Numbered from the stretch's first letter, positions 33,072 through 51,182 are shown. The stretch is DNA of 64,000 nt from a phage (GCA_029944565.1 GCA_029944565.1_4115.1); one strand, 5' to 3'. Notes: generated by a model not told the origin, from the sequence alone. Program-made: numbers and translations.

Positions 33072-33328
33072 TGTTTATTCCATTCTTTTTTGGCTCTCTG
33101 GGTTTTATATTGGATTTGGTTTCTTAATGATGCCAAGTATCGTTGAATGAACAGATCTTGATAGTTTGTTCCAATGAATTTCATAAGATAAACATCACCG
33201 TTGATAACATCCACTTCAGGTGCACCATGTAATACATTGTTTTTTCTAAGGGTGTTAATAAGAGAGAAGAGGGCAGTTTGATACTCAACTCCTGATAAAG
33301 TCTTCATGTTTTGCGAGCCAATATTCAT
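33056..33328 (-). CDS. small hypothetical protein, family B paralog
   Basis: motif FIGTNYQDL. Confidence 0.5.
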   Translation of the reverse strand: MNIGSQNMKTLSGVEYQTALFSLINTLRKNNVLHGAPEVDVINGDVYLMKFIGTNYQDLFIQRYLASLRNQIQYKTQRAKKEWNKQCDKD

Positions 33329-33548
33329 CTAGTTTATCCTGTATAACATTCATTAATTGATCGACAAATTCTTTGCAAAACTTATCTTGATATTGAGTCC
33401 CCATAAAGTACAGCAACCATAGCTCATTAACTTTAGCTCGCATTTGGTTCCATGTAAGGGTGGGGTCATCGTAGATTACTCTTGCTTCTGGGGTGAGCTT
33501 TCGAATTCTAAGTGAATATTCATCTTGTGTTAAGTATTTCATTTGCAT
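33285..33548 (-). CDS. small hypothetical protein, family B paralog
   Basis: motif FMGTQYQDK. Confidence 0.5.
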   Translation of the reverse strand: MQMKYLTQDEYSLRIRKLTPEARVIYDDPTLTWNQMRAKVNELWLLYFMGTQYQDKFCKEFVDQLMNVIQDKLDEYWLAKHEDFIRS

Positions 33549-33697
33549 TTGTCCATAATGTAATTCTTGAGTGCAACTATGTGTTCATGGATATAAAAAT
33601 TCTGATGAGAAGTTCCAAGAAAGTACAGCATCCATCCCTCACTCTGCTCGACTTCTAGTTTAGTATCGAGTTGGTCAGATATGTTAATGAAAACCAT
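33539..33697 (-). CDS. short family B member (52 aa), possibly truncated
   Basis: motif FLGTSHQNF; below ORF-track cutoff; start shares duplicated 45-bp block with neighbour. Confidence 0.4.
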   Translation of the reverse strand: MVFINISDQLDTKLEVEQSEGWMLYFLGTSHQNFYIHEHIVALKNYIMDKCK

Positions 33698-33954
33698 TAG
33701 TTCTTTTCCTTTCTTTCTATTTGTTTCATAAGAACATTGATATACTCACCCGCAAACCTATTCTGATACTGCGTCCCCATGAATTCCAACATCCATACTT
33801 CAGCAACCTTTTCTTCAATTTCAGTCCATTGTAAGTACATCATAGTGAAGTAAATGGTGTTCTCTTTTTTTCTGGCACTCTTAGCACGGGCCTCGTATTC
33901 AAAGTTATTAATGATGTTCATTACATTTGTCCATAATGTAATTCTTGAGTGCAA
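33697..33954 (-). CDS. small hypothetical protein, family B paralog
   Basis: motif FMGTQYQNR. Confidence 0.5.
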   Translation of the reverse strand: MHSRITLWTNVMNIINNFEYEARAKSARKKENTIYFTMMYLQWTEIEEKVAEVWMLEFMGTQYQNRFAGEYINVLMKQIERKEKN

Positions 33955-34135
33955 CTATGTGTGCAATAACATACTCTTCCTGGAAGTTCGTCCCCAGTAC
34001 AGCCATCATGCGTTTATCGGTGGTGTTTATCCTGTGTTCCCTTACACATAAACCTTCTTTGTGAGGAAGTGTAAAATATTTGTTTATTGCAGCTATGATA
34101 ATTTTATTCTTCTCTATATTACTTAAATGTTTCAT
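33908..34135 (-). CDS. small hypothetical protein, family B paralog
   Basis: motif VLGTNFQEE. Confidence 0.5.
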   Translation of the reverse strand: MKHLSNIEKNKIIIAAINKYFTLPHKEGLCVREHRINTTDKRMMAVLGTNFQEEYVIAHIVALKNYIMDKCNEHH

Positions 34136-34344
34136 AGTTTACTCTTAATGTAGTTCTGAAGTTCAATTAAGTATTTCCCTACATAATACTCCTGAAAGTC
34201 TGTATCCAAAAATGCACCCATAAGTAAATCCTTCTCCATTGCCCTTGATAAGTTAAGGTCTGCATTTGAAAGGTATATAAGTAATATTTCAGTCTGGACA
34301 GAATTAAAACGTTTCTTATATTCTTCAGGTGTTAATATAATCAT
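34132..34344 (-). CDS. small hypothetical protein, family B paralog
   Basis: motif FLDTDFQEY. Confidence 0.5.
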   Translation of the reverse strand: MIILTPEEYKKRFNSVQTEILLIYLSNADLNLSRAMEKDLLMGAFLDTDFQEYYVGKYLIELQNYIKSKL

Positions 34345-34556
34345 AATTTGCTCCTGATGTATTTCTCAAGAGATGACAAATACTTTTCCTCATAATACTC
34401 CTGATAGTCTGTTCCCAAGAATGCACCCAAAAGTATTTCATTTTCCAATACCTCGGCTAAGTTTAAATCAGACGTCTCTTCGTATATTATGAGGATTTCA
34501 AGTTGTCTGGCAGCGATGCGTTCAGTATATTGATATGAGTTTTCTATAATAATCAT
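34341..34556 (-). CDS. small hypothetical protein, family B paralog
   Basis: motif FLGTDYQEY. Confidence 0.5.
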   Translation of the reverse strand: MIIIENSYQYTERIAARQLEILIIYEETSDLNLAEVLENEILLGAFLGTDYQEYYEEKYLSSLEKYIRSKL

Positions 34557-34762
34557 ATTTTACTCTTAATATCTTCTATTAAAAATCGAATCCATTCTTC
34601 AACATAATCTTCCTGATGGTTTGTGTTCAGTACAGCCAACATGCGGATCTCTGCTCTTGCAACTTCAATTTCAGTTTTAGGCAGGTCTTTGCTGATATCC
34701 ACCATTAAGTCCATGTATTTCAAGATAAGACCGTATGATTGGGTTCGTGTTATAGTTTTCAT
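34553..34762 (-). CDS. small hypothetical protein, family B paralog
   Basis: motif VLNTNHQED. Confidence 0.5.
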   Translation of the reverse strand: MKTITRTQSYGLILKYMDLMVDISKDLPKTEIEVARAEIRMLAVLNTNHQEDYVEEWIRFLIEDIKSKI

Positions 34763-34959
34763 TGTTTCCTCGTGGACAATATTTTATTTTTCAATGTATC
34801 CATATATTGCCACACCCATCTACCCTGATAGTTTGTTCCCAATGTAATCAAAAGGTATAACTCCATTCGTTCTACGTGTGTGTCTGTGTTGTAAATCTTT
34901 ACGTAGTTTTTACGTAACAGTGATTGATATTCTTCTTTATTTAAAATACGCATTTTCAT
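34759..34959 (-). CDS. small hypothetical protein, family B paralog
   Basis: motif TLGTNYQGR. Confidence 0.5.
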   Translation of the reverse strand: MKMRILNKEEYQSLLRKNYVKIYNTDTHVERMELYLLITLGTNYQGRWVWQYMDTLKNKILSTRKQ

Positions 34960-35153
34960 AGTTTACTCGTTATATCTTCAATTAAATACCAAATCCAATC
35001 GTTGACATACCTTTCCTGAAAGTTAGTTCCAATGAATAGTGCCATAATTAATTCACGCTTATAGGCAATACCACGGTCATGGGACTTATACATTATCATA
35101 GCCATGTTATTGATAAGTCTTTCGTGGTGCTGTTCTTTAGTTAAAATACGCAT
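34956..35153 (-). CDS. small hypothetical protein, family B paralog (first gene of array)
   Basis: motif FIGTNFQER; start at MRILTKEQ with SD aagggag, track ORF extends 10 codons further. Confidence 0.5.
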   Translation of the reverse strand: MRILTKEQHHERLINNMAMIMYKSHDRGIAYKRELIMALFIGTNFQERYVNDWIWYLIEDITSKL

Positions 35154-36612: not shown

Positions 36613-36620
36613 CCACCAGC
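36613..36620. other. Chi octamer (CCACCAGC, complement of GCTGGTGG)
   Basis: exact 8-mer in intergenic DNA. Confidence 0.5.
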
Positions 36621-36652
36621 AGATAGTTACTCACCGTTATTAACTATATATT

Positions 36653-36732
36653 TTAGATACACCTATGCACCCTGTGGGCTAGTTTTTGTCTATGCGTATA
36701 TAGTACTAAAGGAGCGGACCGAAGTCAACTCC
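36653..36732 (-). promoter_or_regulatory. conserved intergenic element, copy 1 (promoter TTGACT-17-TACTAT inside UUCG hairpin, then conserved core)
   Basis: core ...tgcaccctgtgggct... at 36653-36681; hairpin ggagcggac-cgaa-gtcaactcc at 36711-36732. Confidence 0.5.
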
Positions 36733-36751
36733 TTTTTTTATTCTTTTTTTG

Positions 36752-36952
36752 TTAGATGATTCTCCAATCATCAACGATCATGGTAAGATACCGAACCAGT
36801 GATTCGAGTGATTCGTGTTCTCGATAGTCTGCCGCTCCACCAGCGGTACAAGTACAGCCGATTAAGCCGTTTTGTAGTTCCTGGATCTTTACGTCGATCT
36901 GGTTGGCTTTAGCTTCTTTCAGTACTTCAACCAGGGCGATAGCGATAGACAT
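36752..36952 (-). CDS. hypothetical protein
   Basis: 66-aa ORF; SD ggag. Confidence 0.55.
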   Translation of the reverse strand: MSIAIALVEVLKEAKANQIDVKIQELQNGLIGCTCTAGGAADYREHESLESLVRYLTMIVDDWRII

Positions 36953-36974
36953 AATGTTTTACTCCAAACTATTG

Positions 36975-37035
36975 GCGGGAGAACTATTCCCCCGCTCTAT
37001 GTAAAACATTATACATTACTGGTTAGTACTGTCAA
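36975..37035 (-). promoter_or_regulatory. early promoter (TTGACA-16-TATAAT) plus leader hairpin
   Basis: perfect hexamers; hairpin gcgggagaactattcccccgc. Confidence 0.7.
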
Positions 37036-37041
37036 ATAGTT

Positions 37042-37299
37042 TTATGAAATATCTTCGATGTAGTCGGCCCATTTCATTTTTTCAGTACTGTCAATGGCTA
37101 CCGGATTATTTGGATCAAACCATTCACCATTCCCGCAATACATACCCACGCCAGCGGTAGTATATCCATCCTGGGCCGTATTCCATGACATTGCACGATA
37201 GATATGGCCTTTAATTGGTGTTAGTACTGGTAACGTTTTATGGTCTTCTACGTAGGCCATAGCTTGAGGATTTACCCGATATTGTGTGAACTGTTCCAT
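37042..37299 (-). CDS. hypothetical protein
   Basis: 85-aa ORF. Confidence 0.55.
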   Translation of the reverse strand: MEQFTQYRVNPQAMAYVEDHKTLPVLTPIKGHIYRAMSWNTAQDGYTTAGVGMYCGNGEWFDPNNPVAIDSTEKMKWADYIEDIS

Positions 37300-37327
37300 T
37301 ATGTTTCCCCTTGTAGTTAGTAAAGTT

Positions 37328-37356
37328 ATTACATCAGTACTATCAAGCTATGTCAA
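37328..37356 (-). promoter_or_regulatory. early promoter (TTGACA-17-TGTAAT)
   Basis: hexamers on minus strand. Confidence 0.45.
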
Positions 37357-37375
37357 TAGTACTGAAATAAAACTT

Positions 37376-37600
37376 TTAGATTAGATTATTGATGCCGTTG
37401 ATGGTAGACTCGCTTTCTTCTTTCTCCCATTGGCGGTAGTACTTCCATGCTTCATGATATGTGGCGATTAGTTCATCTTTTTGATCCTGAGTACATGCCA
37501 GTACTGAATCACGGTGAGCGGTGTTATAGATAGAATCGAATGATTTCTTCTCTTCTGCCAGGTTAGCTACTTCCCGCATCAGTTCATCAAAGTTAGCCAT
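37376..37600 (-). CDS. hypothetical protein
   Basis: 74-aa ORF; SD aaggag. Confidence 0.6.
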   Translation of the reverse strand: MANFDELMREVANLAEEKKSFDSIYNTAHRDSVLACTQDQKDELIATYHEAWKYYRQWEKEESESTINGINNLI

Positions 37601-37618
37601 TTTATTACTCCTTTTAGT

Positions 37619-37675
37619 GGGGGAGGATATCTCCCCCTATGCAAAACATTATACTTTGTTTTAGTTATTATGCAA
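37619..37675 (-). promoter_or_regulatory. early promoter (TTGCAT-16-TATAAT) plus leader hairpin
   Basis: hairpin gggggag-gatat-ctccccc. Confidence 0.65.
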
Positions 37676-37931
37676 GTACTTTTTTCATATAAAGATTATA
37701 TTCTACACCGCCGTAACCTTCTACGATGATATGTTTTGCGTTATCACGTTTGCACATAGTGAAACCGTTGTTGATGTGTTCTGCATTTTCCAGGGCGACA
37801 TCACCGATAGCGGCACATACGGCACTAATAACAGTATTCCGCAAAGTACTGGTATCATTAGCGGTCATAGTAGTTTGCAGTACTACGTTGTCGTATACGT
37901 GTGCATTGATAGTGATTTCGATAGTGTTCAT
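37668..37931 (-). CDS. hypothetical protein
   Basis: 87-aa ORF; SD aggag. Confidence 0.6.
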   Translation of the reverse strand: MNTIEITINAHVYDNVVLQTTMTANDTSTLRNTVISAVCAAIGDVALENAEHINNGFTMCKRDNAKHIIVEGYGGVEYNLYMKKVLA

Positions 37932-37949
37932 GGTGTATCTCCTGGACTG

Positions 37950-38010
37950 GCGGGAGAACTATTCCCCCGCTCTATGTAAAACATTATACGTTAATCTAAC
38001 TACAATGCAA
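37950..38010 (-). promoter_or_regulatory. early promoter (TTGCAT-16-TATAAT) plus leader hairpin
   Basis: same architecture as 36975..37035. Confidence 0.65.
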
Positions 38011-38017
38011 GTACTTT

Positions 38018-38209
38018 TTAAATTTTATTTCCGATATAGTCCGGTCTATTCTTTTCGGTCATACGCTTTGCTAATGTTTGCATATGGCTTATTGCGTTTA
38101 ATGTGTCTTCCTCCAGGGATGAATCAACATAATCAGGATCATTCTTCACCTTGCAATGATTATGATAGCGTAGTACTGCCAGTACTTTTTTAACTTCTTC
38201 TACTGTCAT
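38018..38209 (-). CDS. hypothetical protein
   Basis: 63-aa ORF, ATGA-coupled to upstream gene. Confidence 0.5.
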   Translation of the reverse strand: MTVEEVKKVLAVLRYHNHCKVKNDPDYVDSSLEEDTLNAISHMQTLAKRMTEKNRPDYIGNKI

Positions 38210-38478
38210 AATAAGTACCCCACTTCGTTAGCTTTCAGGTTAGTATCAATCATCAGTGGATTTTTGTAGTTCACAAAACGATTAGTTTTCTCGATAGCGA
38301 ATCCCATATAATCCAGCTTACTAACAGTACATTCATTCTTAAAAACTTCTTTCGCTGCATCGATGGCTGATTGCATGGATAACCGACCATCTAAATTAAT
38401 GTTTCCAAATGATCCACCAGCAGAAGTAGGATTACCGTTCATATCTTTAATGATCATAGTAGCGGAGTAGCTGGACAT
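38206..38478 (-). CDS. hypothetical protein
   Basis: 90-aa ORF. Confidence 0.6.
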   Translation of the reverse strand: MSSYSATMIIKDMNGNPTSAGGSFGNINLDGRLSMQSAIDAAKEVFKNECTVSKLDYMGFAIEKTNRFVNYKNPLMIDTNLKANEVGYLL

Positions 38479-38500
38479 AATTTTGTTTCCTTTTAGTATC

Positions 38501-38559
38501 GGGGAGAACTATTCTCCCCTTGATGTAAACTATTATACAGTACTGATATACTTTGTCAA
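38501..38559 (-). promoter_or_regulatory. early promoter (TTGACA-16-TATAAT) plus leader hairpin
   Basis: hairpin ggggagaa-ctat-tctcccc. Confidence 0.7.
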
Positions 38560-38565
38560 ATACTT

Positions 38566-38973
38566 TTATTCGCCCATATAGATTAAGTTATCATCGCCTA
38601 CATAGGGATCGCAAACGTTGATTTCTTCGCAGTACTTCGTGAATACATCGCCATAGTGACCTAAACCACGATCCCAAAAACCAGTTCCGTGACCTTCGCG
38701 GGTAAGGAACAGATCATGACCAGCTTGCTCATAACCGTAATCAATAAACATACCGCGAACTACTTCCAGATCATTACCGTGTTTCTCAATGAAGCGAGAA
38801 CATGCAATCACCGCCGCTTGACGTGCTTCATCAGATAACTCATAATCTTCCAGGTAATCGCCGTTATCATTATGTACAGTACTGAATTGCATAGCTTCAA
38901 TGTAAGCTACAACCATTGCAGCATGATTTTTATCGTTAGTGATGTTCCGAGCGAGATTAGTAGTAGTAGACAT
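38566..38973 (-). CDS. hypothetical protein
   Basis: 135-aa ORF. Confidence 0.6.
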   Translation of the reverse strand: MSTTTNLARNITNDKNHAAMVVAYIEAMQFSTVHNDNGDYLEDYELSDEARQAAVIACSRFIEKHGNDLEVVRGMFIDYGYEQAGHDLFLTREGHGTGFWDRGLGHYGDVFTKYCEEINVCDPYVGDDNLIYMGE

Positions 38974-38994
38974 GATTTTATTCCTTATTGTATT

Positions 38995-39053
38995 GGGGAG
39001 AACTATTCTCCCCTTGATGTAAACTATTATACAGTACTGATATACTTTGTCAA
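38995..39053 (-). promoter_or_regulatory. early promoter (TTGACA-16-TATAAT) plus leader hairpin
   Basis: near-identical copy of 38501..38559. Confidence 0.7.
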
Positions 39054-39056
39054 TAC

Positions 39057-39278
39057 TTAATTACGTTTAAAATGATATGTGCCTTTATCATCCTGTACGC
39101 CCCACACTGATTTACCATCAACACCAGTGAAACCGGATTGTAATTCAATATGGAAACCATTATTATCAACTACAAAAACTTTTTTATTTTCATCCCGATA
39201 ACATTGATATTCTGAATCAACATTAAAGGCCGCATCATTCAGAAGATTGGAAGCGTAAATGCAAGTCATTGTAGTCAT
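39057..39278 (-). CDS. hypothetical protein
   Basis: start MTTMTCIYAS; track ORF extended through leader hairpin. Confidence 0.55.
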   Translation of the reverse strand: MTTMTCIYASNLLNDAAFNVDSEYQCYRDENKKVFVVDNNGFHIELQSGFTGVDGKSVWGVQDDKGTYHFKRN

Positions 39279-39301
39279 GATTTTATTCCTTATTCTTTGA
39301 G

Positions 39302-39360
39302 GGAGAACCATTTCCCCCTCTCGATATAAAACATTATACTTGATTCTAAGTACAATGCAA
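39302..39360 (-). promoter_or_regulatory. early promoter (TTGCAT-16-TATAAT) plus leader hairpin
   Basis: hexamers and hairpin gggagaaccatttccccctc. Confidence 0.65.
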
Positions 39361-39402
39361 GTACTTTTTTAAAAATAGTTTTCAGTACTGAATACTTATA
39401 TA

Positions 39403-39487
39403 ATAGATACATTTATGCACCCTGTGGGTCAGTGAGCTATCTCTCAATGAATATATAATAGCAAAGGGACTGACCGAAGTCAATCCC
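39403..39487 (-). promoter_or_regulatory. conserved intergenic element, copy 2 (promoter TTGACT-17-TATTAT inside UUCG hairpin, then conserved core)
   Basis: core at 39403-39432; hairpin gggactgac-cgaa-gtcaatccc at 39465-39487. Confidence 0.5.
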
Positions 39488-39501
39488 TTTTTTAATCTTT
39501 T

Positions 39502-40086
39502 TTATCGTGTTATAGTTACGGCTTTTACATCCCGCTTTTTATAGTACTGATTCCAGATATTGCGGGTTAAACCGTAATCAAGTACTTTAATAAGGCCGTT
39601 GCGATCCTGGCCGATATTCTGTTTTCTGATATCTCTTATCGTTAGTGTTGACAGTGTATCATCAACGTGTTGTAGTGCATCAGCAAAGCGGTGCTGGCGT
39701 TCAATTGCATTACGTTTAATATTGTACTTTAATTCGTTGCACGCGTTAACGTGCTTTACACTGCCTTTGCTTGCAGTACTCAACCGATCCATAACGATAA
39801 ACATATTATCAGGATCGCTTAAATGCATATGCACTTTAGCAAAGTACTGTTTCAATTGAGGGCGGTCATAGTCTAAAAAATTCCATACCTTACATTCAGT
39901 TTCATTTTGTTCTACACCCGCATCACAATTGGCGACCTTAATCACTAACCGATCATTTAAAGCGAAAACTATACGGGAAGATCCCGCCCCGATGATCTCC
40001 AGGCCAGCTAACCGACAAGCTGAAAGGATCTCTTTGTTGGTTTCCATTTCTGACAGTGTACGGATGAATTTAGTATAATTACGCAT
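39502..40086 (-). CDS. protein kinase-like protein (putative)
   Basis: glycine-rich loop IGAGSSRIVF then VIKV; catalytic-loop-like NIGQDRNGLIKVLDYG; start MRNYTKF with SD aaggag. Confidence 0.4.
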   Translation of the reverse strand: MRNYTKFIRTLSEMETNKEILSACRLAGLEIIGAGSSRIVFALNDRLVIKVANCDAGVEQNETECKVWNFLDYDRPQLKQYFAKVHMHLSDPDNMFIVMDRLSTASKGSVKHVNACNELKYNIKRNAIERQHRFADALQHVDDTLSTLTIRDIRKQNIGQDRNGLIKVLDYGLTRNIWNQYYKKRDVKAVTITR

Positions 40087-40114
40087 TGCATGTTCTCCTT
40101 GAGTTAATGAAACT

Positions 40115-40143
40115 ATATTACAGTACTTTACTATCAATTGCAA
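40115..40143 (-). promoter_or_regulatory. early promoter (TTGCAA-17-TAATAT)
   Basis: hexamers on minus strand. Confidence 0.5.
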
Positions 40144-40360
40144 CTACTTTTTTAACATTAACGGCGTGGATCACTTCCTTAGTGTTTTTAGTACTGAATA
40201 CTTTCGCCGCTCCTTGTTCGACCGTGATACGATAGCGACCATTAACATCAACCATATTAATAAAGTCCGGCGTGCTGAATGGTGTTGTTTTACATTTCAG
40301 TACTGTTAACAATTCCACCAGCGATGTAGTTTCTTTGATACGTTTTTCTAAAGTAATCAT
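40118..40360 (-). CDS. hypothetical protein
   Basis: 80-aa ORF. Confidence 0.55.
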   Translation of the reverse strand: MITLEKRIKETTSLVELLTVLKCKTTPFSTPDFINMVDVNGRYRITVEQGAAKVFSTKNTKEVIHAVNVKKVVAIDSKVL

Positions 40361-40389
40361 TTTGTTTTTCCCCGTGTTGGTATGTACAT

Positions 40390-40418
40390 ATAGTACTAAA
40401 ACATTTGAGTACTGTCAA
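40390..40418 (-). promoter_or_regulatory. early promoter (TTGACA-17-TACTAT)
   Basis: ~60-bp block duplicated at 40640-40694. Confidence 0.55.
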
Positions 40419-40637
40419 TTAGATAATTGCATATTTCTTTAAAGATAATGCGTCTTGGGTTGGCTGATACTCAATGCCGTTACCGTTATCTACTTTAACT
40501 AATAAACCTTTGTCAATTAGTTTTTTAATAGTCCTTTGGCCTTGTTGAAAATTGGTAAAATGTGAATCATTACGAAAGGTATAACCGTGCTTAACTGCTT
40601 CATCAATAGTTTTCTTTTCGATTTTAGATAATTTCAT
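40419..40637 (-). CDS. hypothetical protein
   Basis: start MKLSKIEKK; track ORF extended upstream. Confidence 0.55.
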   Translation of the reverse strand: MKLSKIEKKTIDEAVKHGYTFRNDSHFTNFQQGQRTIKKLIDKGLLVKVDNGNGIEYQPTQDALSLKKYAII

Positions 40638-40665
40638 TTTGTTTCTCCCGTGTTGGTATGTGTAC

Positions 40666-40694
40666 ATAATACTAAAACAATTGAGTACTGTCAA
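40666..40694 (-). promoter_or_regulatory. early promoter (TTGACA-17-TATTAT)
   Basis: duplicate of 40390..40418 block. Confidence 0.55.
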
Positions 40695-40945
40695 CGTGAT
40701 ATTAGTTTTATTTTCTTATTATATTGTTGGTGTTCATATAGGTTTATCTTTCCTGTGTTCTCAATTACTATTCTGTTGTTAGTGTCTACATCGATTACAC
40801 GCAGTTTTCCGTTGCTTAACTTCCTTGGTAATAGGTTACCATTAATAAACTCATTAGCAAGCTGTACGGCCTTTGTGATGATTCTCTGTGGTGCTTTATA
40901 GTGTACCCGCAAGATATTATCTTTAGATAGTTGTACCTTAATCAT
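40691..40945 (-). CDS. hypothetical protein
   Basis: 84-aa ORF. Confidence 0.55.
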   Translation of the reverse strand: MIKVQLSKDNILRVHYKAPQRIITKAVQLANEFINGNLLPRKLSNGKLRVIDVDTNNRIVIENTGKINLYEHQQYNKKIKLISR

Positions 40946-40959
40946 TTTAGTTTATCCTA

Positions 40960-40986
40960 TAAAAAAGGCGGGAACTGATCCCGCCG
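40960..40986 (-). terminator. rho-independent terminator
   Basis: hairpin ggcggga-actga-tcccgcc followed by UUUUUU on minus strand. Confidence 0.55.
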
Positions 40987-41007
40987 TGTTGTTAGTACTG
41001 CAAGTTA

Positions 41008-41403
41008 TTAGATAACCTGGCGGCGTTTACTGTATACTGTTACACGATTACCCTTACGGTCGTGTCGGATCTCTTTCTGGTTGCGTACCAGTTCACTTGG
41101 ACGCTTAAGGTTTGCCAGGTGATCCGCGTGAGTCCAAGCGGTATGGTTTGTCTGTACTTTGATATCAGAATCAGCGATAAATTCATCTTGTGCGTTAAGT
41201 ACTGCCGCCAGTAAATCCGCTCGTTTTAGTTCTGCTGCTGTTAGTACTGGCTCCGGTGAATTCACGATATCAGAGATTTCTTTGAACTGTACGGCCCAGC
41301 GTTGACCTTTCGGTGCATCTTTGCCCATGTCTTTAAATGCTGCTCCTTCCTCGCGTGCAACAATACGGGCAGCTTCACGGGTAGCGTAGAATTTAGTAAT
41401 CAT
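41008..41403 (-). CDS. hypothetical protein (paralog of 52725..52991)
   Basis: shared YATREAARIAAR, FKDMG, DRKGNRVTVY; start MITKFYATRE. Confidence 0.6.
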   Translation of the reverse strand: MITKFYATREAARIVAREEGAAFKDMGKDAPKGQRWAVQFKEISDIVNSPEPVLTAAELKRADLLAAVLNAQDEFIADSDIKVQTNHTAWTHADHLANLKRPSELVRNQKEIRHDRKGNRVTVYSKRRQVI

Positions 41404-41447
41404 GGTATACATCCTATTAGTTGAGTTAGTACTACAAGTTAGAGTCT

Positions 41448-41476
41448 ATTATAAAGTACTATCTGGGCAATGTCAA
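41448..41476 (-). promoter_or_regulatory. early promoter (TTGACA-17-TATAAT)
   Basis: perfect hexamers. Confidence 0.65.
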
Positions 41477-41498
41477 ATAGTACTTTAAATGGATTCTA

Positions 41499-41822
41499 TT
41501 ACATGTCTTTCTTACGTTTTACATCGTTGTATCGAACTGTTATTTCTTTGTTAATCTCTTTTTCGATGCGGTGAATAACTTTTTCTTTCGGGTTGAAACC
41601 TATAACGGTTTCTTTAATGATCTCCAAGCCCGTGTATTCGCCTTGTGTGCCGTAACCGTATGTAAAGGTTTCATGTCCCAGGTCTTCCCAACGATCACCA
41701 ATTAACGCAGACACGTAGCAAGAGTGGTAAGTATTGCCGTGTGAATCAGTCCACCGATTAACTTTAATGTCAAAGGAGGTTACAATTTTCAGTTCTACTT
41801 TCTGGGCAAGGATCATAGCCAT
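41499..41822 (-). CDS. hypothetical protein (paralog of 48459..48782)
   Basis: shared RWTDSxGNTYHSC, FTYGY, DVKRKKD; start MAMILAQ. Confidence 0.6.
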   Translation of the reverse strand: MAMILAQKVELKIVTSFDIKVNRWTDSHGNTYHSCYVSALIGDRWEDLGHETFTYGYGTQGEYTGLEIIKETVIGFNPKEKVIHRIEKEINKEITVRYNDVKRKKDM

Positions 41823-41844
41823 TTTTATTTCTCTCTCTTTGTTA

Positions 41845-41907
41845 GGAGGGGAACCGTTTCCCCTCACTTGATGTAAACTATTATACAGTACTAAGATACT
41901 TTGTCAA
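41845..41907 (-). promoter_or_regulatory. early promoter (TTGACA-16-TATAAT) plus leader hairpin
   Basis: hairpin gaggggaaccgtttcccctc. Confidence 0.7.
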
Positions 41908-41910
41908 TAC

Positions 41911-42093
41911 TTATTTTTTGGAAAGTTTACGCATTAATTCTACGCTTTCTTGTGAACGTTTTGCTACCTGGCAAGCTGCATGGACAGTAAACATTTTTGT
42001 ATAGTCTGACGGTTTGCCACCGAACCGAGCGGCACGTTCACGGGCACTTGGAACTAATACGATTTCTTTCTTACAGATAGTGCATTTAGCCAT
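41911..42093 (-). CDS. small Cys-containing hypothetical protein
   Basis: 60-aa ORF MAKCTICKK... Confidence 0.5.
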   Translation of the reverse strand: MAKCTICKKEIVLVPSARERAARFGGKPSDYTKMFTVHAACQVAKRSQESVELMRKLSKK

Positions 42094-42113
42094 TTTTATT
42101 TCTCTCTCTTTGT

Positions 42114-42176
42114 TAGGAGGGGAACCATTCCCCCTCTCGATGTAAACTATTATACAGTACTAAGATACTTTGTCAA
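42114..42176 (-). promoter_or_regulatory. early promoter (TTGACA-16-TATAAT) plus leader hairpin
   Basis: near-identical copy of 41845..41907. Confidence 0.7.
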
Positions 42177-42179
42177 TAC

Positions 42180-42455
42180 TTAATTATTGTAAATGTCGTG
42201 AATAGTGATAAAGTTTTTACGACCGTAAACCTGCAAATCAATATCAATGTAGTGCTTATCTAGTACATCCTCGACGCTTAACGCGGTGTCGTGGATATCT
42301 TCGTAGAATTGAGGATCTACAATCTTGCTTAAGTCATCCGGCGTTAACTCATCGTTAAGCCGTTGAACCGCCTGGATATCTGCTTCACGTTTCCAGTCTT
42401 CCAGGTTAGTAGTCAGTACTTGTTCGATTTCGTTAGCTGTCAGTAGAATCCGCAT
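42180..42455 (-). CDS. hypothetical protein
   Basis: 91-aa acidic ORF. Confidence 0.6.
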   Translation of the reverse strand: MRILLTANEIEQVLTTNLEDWKREADIQAVQRLNDELTPDDLSKIVDPQFYEDIHDTALSVEDVLDKHYIDIDLQVYGRKNFITIHDIYNN

Positions 42456-42488
42456 TTTAATGTTTCCTTATCAGTGGTTGATGTAAGT

Positions 42489-42516
42489 ATTATACTCGTT
42501 TACTTTCTATTGTCAA
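42489..42516 (-). promoter_or_regulatory. early promoter (TTGACA-16-TATAAT)
   Basis: proximal of three tandem promoters. Confidence 0.6.
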
Positions 42517-42604
42517 ACTATTTTATCAGGGGAGGTTTTCTTATGTCTTACTCCTGGACTACTTAACGGGGTTACTTGTTTCGTTCCCCGTCCTGATGTA
42601 AAAT

Positions 42605-42632
42605 ATTATACTTGATTCTAAGTACAATGCAA
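42605..42632 (-). promoter_or_regulatory. early promoter (TTGCAT-16-TATAAT)
   Basis: second tandem promoter; 70-nt leader with hairpin acgggg-N14-ccccgt. Confidence 0.55.
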
Positions 42633-42662
42633 GTACTTTTTAAAAATAGTTTTCAGTACTAG

Positions 42663-42670
42663 CCACCAGC
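42663..42670. other. Chi octamer (CCACCAGC)
   Basis: exact 8-mer next to conserved element. Confidence 0.5.
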
Positions 42671-42675
42671 AAACA

Positions 42676-42755
42676 ATAGATACATTTATGCACCCTGTGG
42701 GCTGATTTGTTTCTATGCGTATATAATAGCAAAGGGACTGACCGGAGTCAATCCC
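42676..42755 (-). promoter_or_regulatory. conserved intergenic element, copy 3 (promoter TTGACT-17-TATTAT inside hairpin, then core)
   Basis: core at 42676-42704; hairpin gggactgac-cgga-gtcaatccc. Confidence 0.5.
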
Positions 42756-42769
42756 TTTTTCAATTATTT

Positions 42770-42919
42770 TTAAACTTGTTTCGGGTTGCGATAGGTGATA
42801 GCGTTCGGGTACATTTGTTTAATGTTATTCCATGCCTGGTTAACATTGTAACCACTTGAGCGAATCAGTTGGTTGCTACCGACACCTTGAAACACTACTT
42901 CGAATAAGAATTCTTTCAT
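42770..42919 (-). CDS. small hypothetical protein (~49 aa)
   Basis: ATGA-coupled to upstream small ORF; below ORF-track cutoff. Confidence 0.35.
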   Translation of the reverse strand: MKEFLFEVVFQGVGSNQLIRSSGYNVNQAWNNIKQMYPNAITYRNPKQV

Positions 42920-43092
42920 GCTTTCACCTCGCTATCTTCTTTACCTTTACGCCAGGACATTACTAATTGTTCGCGTTGCCATAAGTCGAGTGATACAAAA
43001 AGTTTTGCGGTATCACTTTTAGGATACTCGCCATTAGTACCTAACCGATAAAACAGATCTTTCAGTACTGATAATTCTACTTGGATCATTTT
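42916..43092 (-). CDS. small hypothetical protein (~58 aa)
   Basis: ATGA-coupled on both sides. Confidence 0.35.
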   Translation of the reverse strand, partial: KMIQVELSVLKDLFYRLGTNGEYPKSDTAKLFVSLDLWQREQLVMSWRKGKEDSEVKA

Positions 43093-43178
43093 ATTACTCC
43101 TGATTGCGTTAATACTTCTACTATTGCATGAATGATCATAAGTACAGCTAAAACAATAATCATCGGATTCATTTGCAT
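43089..43178 (-). CDS. hydrophobic micro-protein (29 aa, MQMNPMIIVLAVLMIIHAIVEVL...)
   Basis: SD aaggag 8 nt upstream; single predicted TM helix. Confidence 0.35.
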
Positions 43179-43195
43179 AAGCTGTACTCCTTATA

Positions 43196-43408
43196 TTAAT
43201 CTTTCAGCCAATGATCTTGAATGAATTTTTCACAGAATCCCTGTTTCATGGATTCTAACAGGCGTTCGCGGTGAGCGTTGGCAAATTGCTCAGTACTATG
43301 CGTTACGCCAGGCTGATAACGTGATACCCCATCCGGTCCGATGTATTGAACATCCCACGGTTTTTCATTAGTATCAGACCATTTACGAACGATTAGTTGA
43401 CCTTGCAT
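43196..43408 (-). CDS. hypothetical protein
   Basis: 70-aa ORF. Confidence 0.6.
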   Translation of the reverse strand: MQGQLIVRKWSDTNEKPWDVQYIGPDGVSRYQPGVTHSTEQFANAHRERLLESMKQGFCEKFIQDHWLKD

Positions 43409-43425
43409 TTTTCTTTCCTCTCAGT

Positions 43426-43485
43426 GGGGAGAATCATTTCTCCCCTTCATGTAACTTATTATACAGTACTAGATTACATTGTCAA
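43426..43485 (-). promoter_or_regulatory. early promoter (TTGACA-16-TATAAT) plus leader hairpin
   Basis: hairpin ggggagaa-tcat-ttctcccc. Confidence 0.7.
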
Positions 43486-43491
43486 TAGTTT

Positions 43492-43815
43492 TTATTCACC
43501 TTGTTTGAATTTAGTTTTCTCCATTGATTCCATGATTGCAACCAATACGCCGTGGATCTCGCTTAACGTGGAATCACTAAAAGCATTAATGAATAGTCGA
43601 TCATTCTCACGAATATTTTTAATGTACTTTTCAGCAGTAGTTGCGAATTCATTCAACGGTAGATCAAATGCTTTATCCCATGATGGATGGCGTAATTGTA
43701 ACAGTACTGGATTATCACGATCACCAGGGGAAAACGTACCAGTGATGAAACATACGCCCGGAATACTTTCGAACTGGCAACGGACTTCCTTTGTGATAGT
43801 AGTATGAATGTACAT
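43492..43815 (-). CDS. hypothetical protein
   Basis: 107-aa ORF. Confidence 0.6.
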   Translation of the reverse strand: MYIHTTITKEVRCQFESIPGVCFITGTFSPGDRDNPVLLQLRHPSWDKAFDLPLNEFATTAEKYIKNIRENDRLFINAFSDSTLSEIHGVLVAIMESMEKTKFKQGE

Positions 43816-43842
43816 TTATTGTTATCCTCTATTAAATTAATA

Positions 43843-44031
43843 TTACAGTTTATGAATCAATTCTTTATCTAAGCGATAGCGTACATTATTAATAGTAACG
43901 GCATTGTTTTTAATGCTACGCTGTACAGGTCCACCAGCAATAACAAACGTTGCTTTATTACCCCGAACAATGATAGCACTTCCAGGATTACCGAAATCAT
44001 CTTGTACTAAAATACTTGATAAGTTTTCCAT
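43843..44031 (-). CDS. hypothetical protein
   Basis: 62-aa ORF. Confidence 0.55.
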   Translation of the reverse strand: MENLSSILVQDDFGNPGSAIIVRGNKATFVIAGGPVQRSIKNNAVTINNVRYRLDKELIHKL

Positions 44032-44050
44032 TTTTTATTTCCTCTTAGTA

Positions 44051-44107
44051 GGGGAAGATGTTTCCCCTTGATGTAAGTATTATAACAGTACTGAAAACTA
44101 AATGCAA
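44051..44107 (-). promoter_or_regulatory. early promoter (TTGCAT-17-TATAAT) plus leader hairpin
   Basis: hairpin ggggaa-gatgt-ttcccc. Confidence 0.6.
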
Positions 44108-44110
44108 GTA

Positions 44111-44467
44111 CTATGATAAAATCATGATAGGATATTCACTATCGATCAGTACCTCGAATCCGAAACCTTCGTACCATTCTTTAAGATTGAAGGCGTTATC
44201 TTCTCCTGTATCGCATTCTAAAATGATACAATCTGAATCATCGGCGGCATCAATAAAGGCATTCATTAATTCGTTACCTTCACCATTGCCCCGACTATCA
44301 GGATCAACATAAAGAGAATCAATAAACGCTACACGGTCATAATCAAGATCCGGTGCAATGATTCCACGTTTAACAAACCAGTACTGCAATTGTGCTACTT
44401 TGCCCTGTACTTGATAGCCAGTGATCTCGCCATTGTCAGTAGTACGCGTGATATGTTGTATTCCCAT
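44111..44467 (-). CDS. GNAT-like N-acetyltransferase (tentative)
   Basis: LYVDPDSRGNGEGNELMNAFIDAA resembles GNAT motif A; by eye only. Confidence 0.3.
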   Translation of the reverse strand: MGIQHITRTTDNGEITGYQVQGKVAQLQYWFVKRGIIAPDLDYDRVAFIDSLYVDPDSRGNGEGNELMNAFIDAADDSDCIILECDTGEDNAFNLKEWYEGFGFEVLIDSEYPIMILS

Positions 44468-44496
44468 GATTTCAATCCTCAGTTAAGATATAAAAT

Positions 44497-44524
44497 ATTA
44501 TACACTATCTTTCAGTACTGTCAA
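44497..44524 (-). promoter_or_regulatory. early promoter (TTGACA-16-TATAAT)
   Basis: perfect hexamers, no leader hairpin. Confidence 0.65.
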
Positions 44525-44530
44525 TACTTT

Positions 44531-44788
44531 TTATCTCATAGATCTATGCCAACAATTACGCGGGGGACGTTTAAAAGTACTATCATGATCCTCCTGGCAA
44601 GTTATGCAGTACTTACATCCCTTAACGGCCTGGCGTCGATTCTCAGGGATTATATCGCCGCAGTCGAGGCAATGTATCAGTGATTCTATTTGTGCGTTAA
44701 TTTGCTTTCTAGCGTGGTTAACGGCGGCCTGAATCACTGCGTTAATCTCGTCTTGTTCGGCCCCATCTTTCGCGAATCCTACAGCCAT
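44531..44788 (-). CDS. TraR/DksA-family C4 zinc-finger protein (putative)
   Basis: CLDCG-N17-CKYCITC spacing (CxxC-N17-CxxC). Confidence 0.5.
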   Translation of the reverse strand: MAVGFAKDGAEQDEINAVIQAAVNHARKQINAQIESLIHCLDCGDIIPENRRQAVKGCKYCITCQEDHDSTFKRPPRNCWHRSMR

Positions 44789-45039
44789 TATTTTAACCTC
44801 ATTATAAAAATACTATAGTACTGTAATGCGACAATAATATTACTTGTTCTTACTTTTTCCAATCCACATGATACCACATATTCATCCCCATATGTGCGAA
44901 ACGATACACCATGAAAATTTTTATACACTTGCACTACTAATCATAACCTTTCGTCTAACCAACTGCATAGAATTATACTACTTTACGCAAATTGATCAAG
45001 TATTGATCAGATCATTTTTTGATCAATATTATACAGTTA

Positions 45040-45115
45040 CATTTGTGCACCCTATGGGTTAGTGACGTTCTCGTCTTGATGTAAGTATTATGCCAGTACT
45101 TGATGATATTGTCAA
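45040..45115 (-). promoter_or_regulatory. orphan promoter (TTGACA-17-CATAAT) with conserved transcribed core, no ORF downstream
   Basis: hexamers at 45087-45115; transcript begins acttacatcaagacgagaacgtcactaacccatagggtgc. Confidence 0.5.
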
Positions 45116-45119
45116 TAGT

Positions 45120-45317
45120 TTATTTTAATTTTTTTCTGTCATTGATTAATGCTTTCAGTACTATACTAATGATTTGCAATGATTCATCAATGACTATAAA
45201 ATTATTCTCTTTCATTAGATGATAGTTACCATTGATTGTATATTCTAAGGAGTACTGTTTACGTTTAATTTTTGATAATGTTTCTATTTGTTTTTGTACT
45301 GATTTCATGCTAATCAT
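45120..45317 (-). CDS. hypothetical protein
   Basis: 65-aa ORF. Confidence 0.5.
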   Translation of the reverse strand: MISMKSVQKQIETLSKIKRKQYSLEYTINGNYHLMKENNFIVIDESLQIISIVLKALINDRKKLK

Positions 45318-45393
45318 TGTTAAACGTCCTGTAACGCATTCTAACGAGATAAACGGTTTAGTACTGGCATTGTATAGGGTAATGAATTAAAGC

Positions 45394-45401
45394 CCACCAG
45401 C
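45394..45401. other. Chi octamer (CCACCAGC)
   Basis: exact 8-mer within hairpin agcccaccagcg... Confidence 0.45.
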
Positions 45402-45422
45402 GTTAACCAGTGGGCTATAATC

Positions 45423-45557
45423 TTACATCTTGCGGATAATCTTAACAGTATCTTTCACCGATTTACCGTCTTGCTGGCATTGCTCGATCATTGCGTATTG
45501 TTCTGCTGTAAGATCCTCGCCAGTTTTTGCCAGTACTGCGTCGATGAATGAATCCAG
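45423..45557 (-). CDS. small hypothetical protein (~44 aa)
   Basis: downstream of promoter 45602..45629; below ORF-track cutoff. Confidence 0.4.
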   Translation of the reverse strand: MDSFIDAVLAKTGEDLTAEQYAMIEQCQQDGKSVKDTVKIIRKM

Positions 45558-45601
45558 TGCGATCATTTTGTTTCTCTCTTAGGTTAAGTTAACTACTGTT
45601 T

Positions 45602-45629
45602 ATAAAACTTATTATACAGTACTATCAAA
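45602..45629 (-). promoter_or_regulatory. early promoter (TTGACA-16-TATAAT)
   Basis: perfect hexamers. Confidence 0.65.
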
Positions 45630-45665
45630 CGTTGTCAATATCTTTAATAGTACTGGTAATATATT

Positions 45666-45845
45666 TTAGCGGTAATCGTCGTATGCTTTATTCACCTGGC
45701 GAATGTAACTTTCAAAGGCTTCGTCTACCGTTTCATACTCCCGAACATAATCACCATAGGAAACTACATACATACCTTTTTGATCTTCAAACGACATGAT
45801 GATAGAATCCAGGCCGATGATTTCAGTTTTTGCGATGATAGCCAT
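45666..45845 (-). CDS. hypothetical protein
   Basis: start MAIIAKTEI with SD aaggaa; track ORF extends upstream. Confidence 0.55.
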   Translation of the reverse strand: MAIIAKTEIIGLDSIIMSFEDQKGMYVVSYGDYVREYETVDEAFESYIRQVNKAYDDYR

Positions 45846-45879
45846 TTTTAATTCCTTAGTAGTGTAGTTGATAAAAGTT

Positions 45880-45908
45880 ATTATGCCAGTACTATCAATC
45901 AGTGTCAA
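45880..45908 (-). promoter_or_regulatory. early promoter (TTGACA-17-CATAAT)
   Basis: same subtype as 45087..45115 and 48826..48854. Confidence 0.55.
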
Positions 45909-45928
45909 TAGTACTGTGATAATATTTT

Positions 45929-46141
45929 TTAGTTAATAATAGTCAGTGTAAAATTGTAATCCCCTGCCTGGTATAGTACTTTATCGCCGAACGTTCCAAC
46001 ACGTTTCATATTGCAATAGATACCCATAACACTTTTTACATCTTTGATATTCCGAACGCCAGTAATATCCTTGTTTAAATGATCGTGATCAGAAAATAAA
46101 ACTTGTTTTGCATTTTTCAGTACAGTGCAGATATTAGCCAT
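45929..46141 (-). CDS. hypothetical protein
   Basis: 70-aa ORF. Confidence 0.6.
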   Translation of the reverse strand: MANICTVLKNAKQVLFSDHDHLNKDITGVRNIKDVKSVMGIYCNMKRVGTFGDKVLYQAGDYNFTLTIIN

Positions 46142-46161
46142 TTTGTTTTCTCTCTGTTAGT

Positions 46162-46221
46162 GGGGAGAATCATTTCTCCCCTTCATGTAACTTATTATAC
46201 AGTACTATAATCTATTGTCAA
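46162..46221 (-). promoter_or_regulatory. early promoter (TTGACA-16-TATAAT) plus leader hairpin
   Basis: hairpin ggggagaa-tcat-ttctcccc. Confidence 0.7.
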
Positions 46222-46235
46222 ACTATTTTTTTATA

Positions 46236-46577
46236 TTATTCGAAATCTTCTGGACCGGACTGATAATCATCTTCACCGTATGCACTTTCTAACTTCTCGC
46301 CAGTGTGATCATCAGTTAGTGAATCATCCTCATAATTCACGTCTACGCCTACAATGTAAAACTGGCTATCGTCTGGATCATTGAAATTAATTTTCTGAAT
46401 GTTTACAATAACTGTATTGATGCCCAGGACACAGCCATCAGCCGTTACAAAGTACTGATAGTTTTCACAACCGCCTGAATTGAAACCGTAATTGATTTCG
46501 GCCCGACCATCATTTAAACGCAGTGCCTGGGCGATGATTTCGTTTTCAAAGTTAGATTGAGCAATTGAGATAGTCAT
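46236..46577 (-). CDS. hypothetical acidic protein
   Basis: 113-aa ORF, Asp/Glu-rich C-terminus. Confidence 0.6.
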   Translation of the reverse strand: MTISIAQSNFENEIIAQALRLNDGRAEINYGFNSGGCENYQYFVTADGCVLGINTVIVNIQKINFNDPDDSQFYIVGVDVNYEDDSLTDDHTGEKLESAYGEDDYQSGPEDFE

Positions 46578-46597
46578 GATTCGTTTCCTTATTACTA

Positions 46598-46656
46598 GGG
46601 GAAACCGTTTCCCCTTTCGATGTAAAACATTATACGCTTATTGAGATAGTTTGCAA
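46598..46656 (-). promoter_or_regulatory. early promoter (TTGCAA-16-TATAAT) plus leader hairpin
   Basis: hairpin ggggaaa-ccg-tttcccc. Confidence 0.65.
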
Positions 46657-46709
46657 GTACTTTTTATCAAATACTTTAAAATAGTTTTCAGTACTCAAAC
46701 ATTATACAA

Positions 46710-46792
46710 TAGATACACTCCTGCACCCTGTGGGCTAGTGAGCTATCTCTCAATGATTATATAATAACAAAATGGCTGACCGAAGTCAACCA
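46710..46792 (-). promoter_or_regulatory. conserved intergenic element, copy 4 (promoter TTGACT-17-TATTAT inside UUCG hairpin, then core)
   Basis: core at 46710-46755; hairpin tggctgac-cgaa-gtcaacca. Confidence 0.5.
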
Positions 46793-46802
46793 CTTTTTTC
46801 AT

Positions 46803-48825: not shown

Positions 48826-48854
48826 ATTATGCCAGTACTATCAAACTATGTCAA
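48826..48854 (-). promoter_or_regulatory. early promoter (TTGACA-17-CATAAT)
   Basis: hexamers on minus strand. Confidence 0.55.
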
Positions 48855-48873
48855 TAGTACTGTGATAATATTT

Positions 48874-49549: not shown

Positions 49550-49557
49550 CCACCAGC
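49550..49557. other. Chi octamer (CCACCAGC)
   Basis: exact 8-mer; partner in opposite orientation at 49612. Confidence 0.5.
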
Positions 49558-49611: not shown

Positions 49612-49619
49612 GCTGGTGG
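49612..49619. other. Chi octamer (GCTGGTGG)
   Basis: exact 8-mer. Confidence 0.5.
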
Positions 49620-51176: not shown

Positions 51177-51182
51177 TACTAC

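Follow-up and report, generated by a model that had tools for sequence, protein, structure and literature searches.

The stretch of phage DNA analyzed here (GCA_029944565.1; 64,000 nucleotides, referred to throughout as the window) carries four copies of a short hairpin element that overlaps a predicted sigma-70 promoter, spread over some 10 kb of a region of small genes. Between 36 and 47.5 kb the window is 93-97% identical to Asteriusvirus jumbo coliphages, among them fEgEco12, Ecwhy_1, G17, UB and 121Q; it is an Asteriusvirus (PBECO4/121Q/G17-like) early region. The credible open reading frames (ORFs) of that interval are all small and all encoded on the minus strand, and the ORFs flanking the hairpin sites lie on the minus strand throughout 35.7-53.8 kb. 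In several relatives the corresponding region falls within or adjoins the direct terminal repeat, and the G17 and WPEC3 records begin about 750 bp to the left of window position 36000. A scan of the window for tRNA and tmRNA genes returned none. The four copies, each with its promoter boxes and the ORF that precedes it, are as follows.

36708-36735, minus strand: copy 1, hairpin AAAGGAGUUGAC-UUCG-GUCCGCUCCUUU (-14.4 kcal/mol, z -3.5); -35 TTGACT at 36723-36728, -10 TACTAT at 36700-36705; upstream ORF 36752-36952 (minus strand), its stop codon 17 nt ahead of the stem.
39463-39490, minus strand: copy 2, hairpin AAAGGGAUUGAC-UUCG-GUCAGUCCCUUU (-18.5 kcal/mol, z -6.2); -35 at 39478-39483, TG-extended -10 TATTAT at 39455-39460; stop codon of the upstream ORF (minus strand) at 39502.
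42731-42758, minus strand: copy 3, hairpin with a UCCG loop (-20.6 kcal/mol); -35 at 42746-42751, -10 TATTAT at 42723-42728; stop codon of the upstream ORF (minus strand) at 42770.
46769-46796, minus strand: copy 4, hairpin AAAGUGGUUGAC-UUCG-GUCAGCCAUUUU with two G·U pairs (-17.5 kcal/mol); -35 at 46784-46789, -10 TATTAT at 46761-46766; stop codon of the upstream ORF (minus strand) at 46803.

The sequence TTGACTYCGGTC occurs exactly four times in the window, on the minus strand only (36717-36728, 39472-39483, 42740-42751 and 46778-46789), compared with 0.29 occurrences expected by chance, and a count of four was reached in none of 100 shuffles. Folded as minus-strand RNA, the four sites gave energies of -14.4 to -20.6 kcal/mol with z-scores of -3.5 to -6.3, and within the window this GC-rich type of hairpin is limited to these sites, where an earlier sequence-only reading had placed it. 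Each copy consists of AAA, a variable 4-bp GC stem, UUGAC, the loop and the complement. That reading had described a stem of 9-10 bp; nine pairs hold, but three A-U pairs extend them to 12, and the stem of copy 1 contains one internal U/C mismatch. Its other structural claims, namely a UUCG loop replaced once by UCCG (at 42.7 kb), a -35 hexamer within the 5' arm and an A-run on one side with a T-run on the other, were all borne out: TTGAC forms the final five bases of the 5' arm and the hexamer reaches one base into the loop, and the stem is preceded by five to seven A and followed by TTT or TTTT. The outer stems differ among the copies yet remain paired (GGAG/CUCC, GGGA/UCCC twice, and GUGG/CCAU), so that the proposed covariation stands, although the pair quoted as tggc/gcca is a plus-strand reading of GUGG/CCAU and is mismatched on that strand. 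In all four copies a -10 hexamer lies 17 bp 3' of TTGACT (TATTAT in three, TACTAT in one), with TG ahead of it in copies 2-4, and the hairpins start 7-17 nt past the stop codons of the upstream ORFs on the same strand. We found no conserved ATG or small ORF inside the element, and a search of Rfam yielded no family matching the hairpin.

A profile built from the four window copies was used to find relatives, and 31 distinct hairpin-promoters from K64-1, RaK2, CBB, GAP32, 121Q, a Yersinia jumbo phage and metagenomic jumbo contigs could be aligned without gaps. In this alignment 95.4% of the stem cells are paired, a share that drops to 26.6-61.6% if the 3' arm is shifted by 1-3 columns against the 5' arm. 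Double-sided changes number 30 in the four outer pairs, which run through GC, AU, UA and CG, and none of 500 shuffles matched the observed covariation. Toward the loop the pattern is of a different kind: one inner pair is U·G in 25 of the 31 hairpins, another is U-A or U·G (20 and 10) and a third is G-C or G·U (19 and 12), the 3' arm following the pattern G-U-Y-R-R, in which GUCAG, GUUAG, GUCGG, GUUGG, GUUAA and other versions all pair with UUGAC by way of G·U and U·G. Such wobbles account for 60 of 372 cells and become A·C mismatches on the opposite strand, where only 80.1% of cells are paired. The mean folding energy is accordingly -14.8 kcal/mol on the sense strand vs. -8.6 kcal/mol on the antisense strand, with the sense strand the more stable in 31 of 31. 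The C(UUCG)G loop is strongly enriched (UUCG in 14 of 31, UCCG in four more). The alignment shows a conserved and covarying hairpin with fixed promoter geometry which, as its wobble pattern shows, is selected as sense-strand RNA. This is the classical mark of selection acting on the RNA of one strand, and it speaks against an operator or cruciform at the DNA level as well as against a terminator that works symmetrically in both directions.

The latter had been put forward in the sequence-only reading, in which the hairpin would act as a bidirectional intrinsic terminator and halt transcription from both directions. Read on the plus strand, the four copies do present a hairpin followed by T5-T7, a textbook tail, and RNA of that strand reaches -6.4 to -13.4 kcal/mol on folding; among the relatives, L005:10141 forms a perfect palindrome flanked by runs on both sides, and plus-strand copies of a transcribed unit described below (at 51169 and 54373) point to some antisense transcription in the region. 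However, the wobbles of the 3' arm weaken the plus-strand hairpin in every one of the 31 sequences, and in copy 4 it reaches only -6.4 kcal/mol vs. -17.5 on the minus strand. The A-run that would serve as the plus-strand tail varies from 0 to 7 A across the relatives and falls to 0-3 in 14 of 31, whereas the sense T-run after the stem is kept invariably. In addition, no gene faces the hairpins from the other side, since every flanking ORF is encoded on the minus strand, and plus-strand promoters aimed at them did not exceed chance level. The A-rich DNA 5' of the -35 box, in which the 31 homologues average 6.4 A over the 10 nt ahead of the stem, resembles UP elements, and UP-like elements have been reported at the RpoD-like promoters of CBB (PMC5259590); the upstream A-run could equally be explained as such a promoter element. 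Termination in both directions is therefore not supported, and we regard it as quite unlikely.

Several observations bear on termination in the sense direction. In the GenBank record of G17, three of these hairpins are annotated as ARNold terminators on the same strand, 15-19 nt past the ends of annotated coding sequences, and the next start codon lies 190-280 nt beyond the hairpin. In the first 20 kb of CBB, nine of nine such hairpins are located approximately 10-25 nt past an annotated coding sequence. The element thus has the usual features of an intrinsic terminator, a GC-rich hairpin with an immediate U-run 3' of a stop codon. With respect to terminators of this kind and the CUUCGG intercistronic hairpins of T4, it shares the GC-rich stem, the extra-stable tetraloop, the U-run and the position a few nucleotides past a stop codon; unlike canonical C(UUCG)G terminators, its U-run is short and runs into a -10 box, and its stem encodes a -35 box.

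The same hairpin could also act after transcription, as a stabilizer or processing signal of RNA 3' ends: polymerase would read through, the RNA would be cleaved, and the cUUCGg hairpin would then block 3' exonucleases. Tuerk et al., in 1988, reportedly proposed an exonuclease-blocking role of this kind for CUUCGG hairpins between T4 cistrons. Selection on the sense-strand RNA, the enrichment of the C(UUCG)G loop and the shortness of the U-run in the four copies would all fit such a role. A pure stabilizer, however, has no need of a U-run, which is found directly 3' of the stem in every instance, nor would it account for the scoring of three of the hairpins as terminators by ARNold. Moreover, stem-loops with similar tails from the promoter-early stem-loop (PeSL) cassettes of T4-like phages, when placed in lacZ fusions, cut expression approximately as much as rrnB T1 (PMC2839356; PMC4122927). 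As the sole account of the element stabilization seems improbable, if somewhat less so than a bidirectional terminator, and it is compatible with termination on the sense strand.

Two observations support the promoter half of the element. A TAnnnT hexamer at 16-18 bp is present in 31 of 31 hairpins, although it was absent from the selection criteria. Stronger evidence comes from a conserved unit, which we term module B, downstream of the hairpin-promoter (module A); in a covariance-model alignment of 69 such units the -10 hexamer occupies the same columns whether the -35 box is of the hairpin type (30 units) or of the ordinary type (38 units). Since module B begins at a fixed distance of about 7 nt from a -10 box in every copy, its start looks like a transcription start. 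A terminator that carries the next promoter, as the sequence-only reading had it, is in these respects the best description of the element: the position after stop codons, the GC-rich stem with its U-run, the covariation and the annotation in G17 speak for its first half, and the fixed -10 spacing and the conserved unit downstream for its second.

An alternative at the level of DNA would make the dyad a palindromic operator for a dimeric regulator bound over the -35 box, or a cruciform or hairpin promoter of the N4 type. What lends this some appeal is the ordinary promoter class of the region, in which the -35 box often sits between two AGTACT palindromes (e.g., CAGTACTATTGAC-atag-TTTGATAGTACTG); AGTACT is 14-fold over-represented, which suggests a sequence-specific DNA factor for that class. 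In the hairpin-promoters, however, the outer stem changes freely while its pairing is kept, as expected of nucleic-acid pairing and not of a protein site, and G·U and U·G pairs are tolerated only in RNA-like pairing, and here on one strand alone. We consider a DNA-level element very improbable.

As for the palindrome itself, AGTACT occurs 259 times in the window vs. 18.8 expected and is absent from approximately 20.1-27.7 kb and 30.2-35.4 kb. It typically lies just 5' of the -35 and of the -10 box of ordinary promoters, where AT-rich dyads enclose the -35 box (for instance at 37336-37363, 45888-45915 and 48834-48861), a pattern suggestive of a sequence-specific factor, or of a promoter architecture particular to this kind of phage.

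Taken together, these observations make it probable that the element is a one-directional intrinsic terminator, or a strong attenuator combined with a 3' stabilizer, overlapping a sigma-70 promoter in a composite cassette of the PeSL type. Having transcribed the small early gene upstream, host RNA polymerase would enter a cassette of about 40 bp, the minus strand being the coding strand. The RNA would fold into a 9-12-bp hairpin capped by cUUCGg and followed by UUU(U)G-YUAUUAU, forming the intrinsic terminator or strong attenuator and 3'-end stabilizer. As duplex DNA the same bases would constitute a sigma-70 promoter, in which the end of the 5' arm and the first loop base supply the -35 TTGACT, the 3' arm and U-run supply the 17-bp spacer, which ends in an extended -10 TG in three of four copies, and TATTAT follows; the upstream A-run would double as an UP element. 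Initiation about 7 nt past the -10 box would yield the module B RNA, comprising a short covarying hairpin, an R-CCC-NNN-GGG-U hairpin and UGUAUCUAU, and this transcript would continue into the ordinary promoter and 5' untranslated region (UTR) of the next gene. We infer both actual termination and actual initiation at the cassettes, all functional statements made here resting on sequence, covariation and analogy.

The closest analogy is with the PeSL cassettes described in RB49/phi1, PST/T4 and nt-1/KVP40 (Arbiol et al. 2010, PMC2839356; Comeau et al. 2014, PMC4122927). These combine a sigma-70-type early promoter, preceded by AT-rich DNA, with a presumed terminator stem-loop, and they too are numerous, separating small ORFan early genes. 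In nt-1 the consensus of the stem-loop, A3-4 G3-loop-C3 T3-4, approximates the AAAGGG...CCCTTT of the window cassettes, and the RB49 stem-loop also lies inside the promoter, either between the -35 and -10 boxes or over the -10 box. Cloned PeSL cassettes acted as strong promoters, and nearly all recovered clones had point mutations in the -35 or -10 box (PMC2839356; PMC4122927). The window cassettes likewise have -35 and -10 boxes at about 17 bp, A5-A7 upstream and a stable stem-loop overlapping the promoter, although in a different register: their geometry is fixed with the -35 box as the inner 5' arm, whereas PeSL stem-loops are located between the boxes, over the -10 box or just upstream. 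They differ further in their usual cUUCGg loop, in belonging to Rak2-like jumbo phages and not Tevenvirinae, and in what comes next: no Shine-Dalgarno sequence and start codon close the cassette on its 3' side, but module B and a second promoter follow and the start codon is some 190-280 nt away.

A number of points weigh against this interpretation. First, the sense U-run is short in the four copies (UUU or UUUU, then G or A), and the plus-strand T-run (T5-T7) is longer, so that sequence alone cannot prove which direction terminates better. Second, termination within the next promoter only partly shields that promoter from occlusion by the incoming polymerase. Third, TTGAC was a selection criterion for the 31-hairpin alignment and its invariance there is by construction; nhmmer profile matches, which were not chosen for TTGAC, also carry it. 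Fourth, the copies share ancestry, and the shuffle statistics overstate their independence. Finally, we looked in the literature for transcriptome data on Rak2-like coliphages and found none.

Modules A and B proved to be separable. Module A occurs without B, directly ahead of ordinary genes, and B occurs with ordinary promoters on either strand: 22 of the 31 distinct hairpin-promoters drive a B unit, and 30 of 68 distinct B units have a hairpin-type promoter. Among the nine hairpin relatives with no module B after them, those at L002:383, 1731 and 7768, checked by eye, lead straight to a ribosome-binding site (RBS) and start codon. Structurally, module B begins with a hairpin (hp1) near the RNA start, whose 3-5-bp stem takes at least 17 different sequences, all paired, and whose loop is purine-rich (GCGAAA, AGAUAA, AGAACAA, GAGAAA). 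A second hairpin (hp2), with the box R-CCC-NNN-GGG-U, follows after 3-5 nt; its base pair is A-U in half of the units and G·U in the other half, and CCU...AGG is seen twice. Downstream of hp2 come GC, five purine-rich bases and then UGUAUCUAU or CCGUCUAU. The two helices together show 98 double-sided changes, all but two of them in hp1, a number reached in none of 500 shuffles, and 88.7% of helix cells are paired vs. 7.8-48.2% when slid. Over 224 kb of Rak2-like sequence the covariance model detected 69 units, of which the window accounts for seven.

36643-36709, minus strand: module B driven by copy 1, short form without a good hp1; hp2 box CCCACAGGGTGCA at 36666-36678; the interval includes the -10 box (67 bits).
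39393-39464, minus strand: module B driven by copy 2; hp1 UGAG-AGAUAG-CUCA, hp2 box 39416-39428 (79.3 bits).
42666-42732, minus strand: module B driven by copy 3, short form; hp2 box 42689-42701 (59.7 bits).
46699-46770, minus strand: module B driven by copy 4; hp2 box 46722-46734 (78.3 bits).
45023-45094, minus strand: fifth module B unit, with an ordinary promoter TTGACA ... CATAAT and no GC hairpin (59.5 bits).
51169-51240, plus strand: module B unit antisense to its neighbors, with its own promoter, TTGACA at 51148-51153 (53.3 bits).
54373-54444, plus strand: module B unit in a stretch with no ORF of at least 50 amino acids except a weak TTG-start ORF at 54142-54318 (64 bits).

Within the window the short form, with its poor hp1, is thus that of copies 1 and 3, while the ordinary promoter of the unit at 45023-45094 illustrates the separability of the two modules. 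The plus-strand unit at 51169-51240 runs into a hairpin, GGGGATCAATCGATCCCC (51258-51275), that it has in common with a converging minus-strand gene, and it has the appearance of an independent small RNA gene, about 100 nt in length. Some relatives contain converging pairs of module B units, in CBB (L003) at 971-1113, 3752-3923 and 20804-20944, in L005 at 1213-1370 and in L014 at 6023-6175; each transcript of a pair holds its own hp2 box together with the complement of its partner's, within a 15-16-bp perfect inverted repeat CCCACAGGGTGCGGA...TCCGCACCCTGTGGG. Such pairs could lead to mutual termination or to double-stranded RNA.

The structure and the family of module B are, by their covariation, real, and they appear to be undescribed. 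Rfam gave no matches at the gathering threshold across the whole window and none at E<=5 over 35-48 kb, and 170-nt slices gave only chance-level matches of at most 19 bits. No similarity was found in 5,426 E. coli genomes. The related phage PA5oct produces abundant non-coding RNAs from its direct terminal repeat, with RNA-seq evidence (PMC7318152), and the module B covariance model found no match when run on PA5oct. The papers searched on CBB, fEgEco12, G17 and Asteriusvirus mention neither the hairpin-promoter nor module B. Three further candidate features were rejected. A pseudoknot or closing helix, pairing the hp1 loop AGAUA or the 5' AUAGA with a downstream UAUCU, received no support from mutual information, in which only hp1 covaries. 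Candidate trans targets in the rest of the window were sought with the conserved GUGUAUCUAU and with the hp2 box; counts stayed at chance level, and only the B units themselves were matched. A second promoter, CCCACAGGGTGC...TATCTAT, has a '-10' that is not conserved in relatives (CCGTCTAT, CCGTTCAG).

By analogy, module B could be a 5'-terminal stabilizing leader, a trans-acting small RNA or a cis element like put or nut. As with the lambda nut sites (boxA/boxB) and HK022 put (PMC9378689), it lies right after a strong early promoter and is built of a pair of small hairpins, with a purine-rich loop on the first that is reminiscent of boxB-type loops. Unlike them, it has no similarity to nut or put in sequence or in Rfam and contains no boxA, and many of its copies are antisense, stand-alone or arranged in convergent pairs, so that the likeness is a resemblance only. 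A more far-reaching conjecture, which we put forward as speculative and doubtful, is that the hairpin-promoter is the loading point of an undescribed phage RNA system, with module B a new class of small structured RNA. If this were true, host polymerase would make module B from the terminal-repeat or early region once the DNA enters the cell. Module B might then act in cis on polymerase in the manner of put or nut, the cassette stopping unmodified polymerases and launching modified ones; alternatively, it would be abundant and serve in trans, as a decoy or a regulator.

The four hairpins are embedded in a dense array of ordinary early promoters. The window contains at least 15 such cassettes between 36116 and 51600, forming repeat families of 9-15 copies (D1-D8, D12 and D13); each comprises TTGCAA or TTGACA, 16 bp, TATAAT, a 5' UTR hairpin GGGGAGAA...TTCTCCCC and an RBS, and most small ORFs own one. 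Breakpoints of homology among Asteriusviruses fall on these ordinary cassettes (window 36976, 38481-38502, 38963 and 44094) and on none of the four hairpins; they would be the expected product of modular shuffling as in PeSL cassettes.

The same part of the window is rich in the E. coli Chi sequence GCTGGTGG, which occurs 11 times vs. 0.32 expected, nine times on the minus strand and always within 36.6-55 kb.

Minus strand, Chi sites: 36613-36620, 36837-36844, 38414-38421, 40315-40322, 42663-42670, 43931-43938, 45394-45401, 49550-49557 and 54915-54922.
Plus strand, Chi sites: 49612-49619 and 54927-54934.

Two of the copies lie just 3' of the module B units of copies 1 and 3. Given their minus-strand orientation and the starts of the G17 and WPEC3 records, the Chi sites would be oriented against RecBCD that enters at a genome end near 35 kb, and the cluster may be an anti-RecBCD feature of the first-entering DNA. 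At 54915-54941 an inverted pair of Chi sites forms a hairpin, CCACCAGC-acaa-GCTGGTGG, directly 5' of CATAAT, and in relatives, too, Chi or its complement is found in promoter spacers (e.g., TTGACAAGCCACCAGC...CATAAT in L014 and L002). This inverted pair and the module B unit at 54373-54444 both lie in a stretch of about 1.3 kb (53830-55140) that has no ORF of at least 50 amino acids apart from the weak TTG ORF, and that also includes a consensus plus-strand promoter at 54478-54507. The GC skew changes sign near 56 kb, which suggests a switch in the direction of transcription. The interval 30500-35100 holds a cluster of diverged direct repeats of 50-226 nt, spaced at approximately 210-270 bp (families D6, D10, D11 and D14-D18), which resemble a row of small paralogous genes on the minus strand, arranged in tandem.

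Beyond the Rak2-like phages, a scan of IMG/VR for TTGACTTCGGTC-N11-TATNNT returned 94 exact matches. In 55 of them at least eight consecutive stem pairs form; the others resemble background. Among the structured ones are two groups of contigs from T4-like cyanophages, in the vicinity of gp43, uvsX and regA; a search of the cyanophage literature gave nothing useful. The Yersinia phage vB_YenM_12 (L015), an unrelated 50-kb myophage, carries AAAAAAAAGGGGTTGACTTCGGTCAATCCCTTTTCTATTAT at 698-739 between two tail-region genes, 92% identical to the window 40-mer, and from the sequences convergence and horizontal transfer are indistinguishable as its source.

In summary, the hairpin represents a known type of composite element in a new position and a new phage lineage, and public records already annotate it in part. 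What is new with respect to the PeSL papers is the register with the -35 box as the inner 5' arm, the cUUCGg loop and the TG-extended -10 box after the U-run; the more novel item is the small RNA family that the hairpin drives, which is undescribed in the databases and papers searched. Which of the two strands selection acts on can be read from the wobble pattern. The occurrence of the -35-in-stem design in Rak2-like phages, T4-like cyanophages and a small Yersinia myophage suggests a general phage solution, in which a jumbo phage would pack a 'stop' and a 'start' into about 40 bp, as an RNA structure for the incoming polymerase and a duplex promoter for the next one. Such a cassette would be a ready-made insulating part for synthetic biology.

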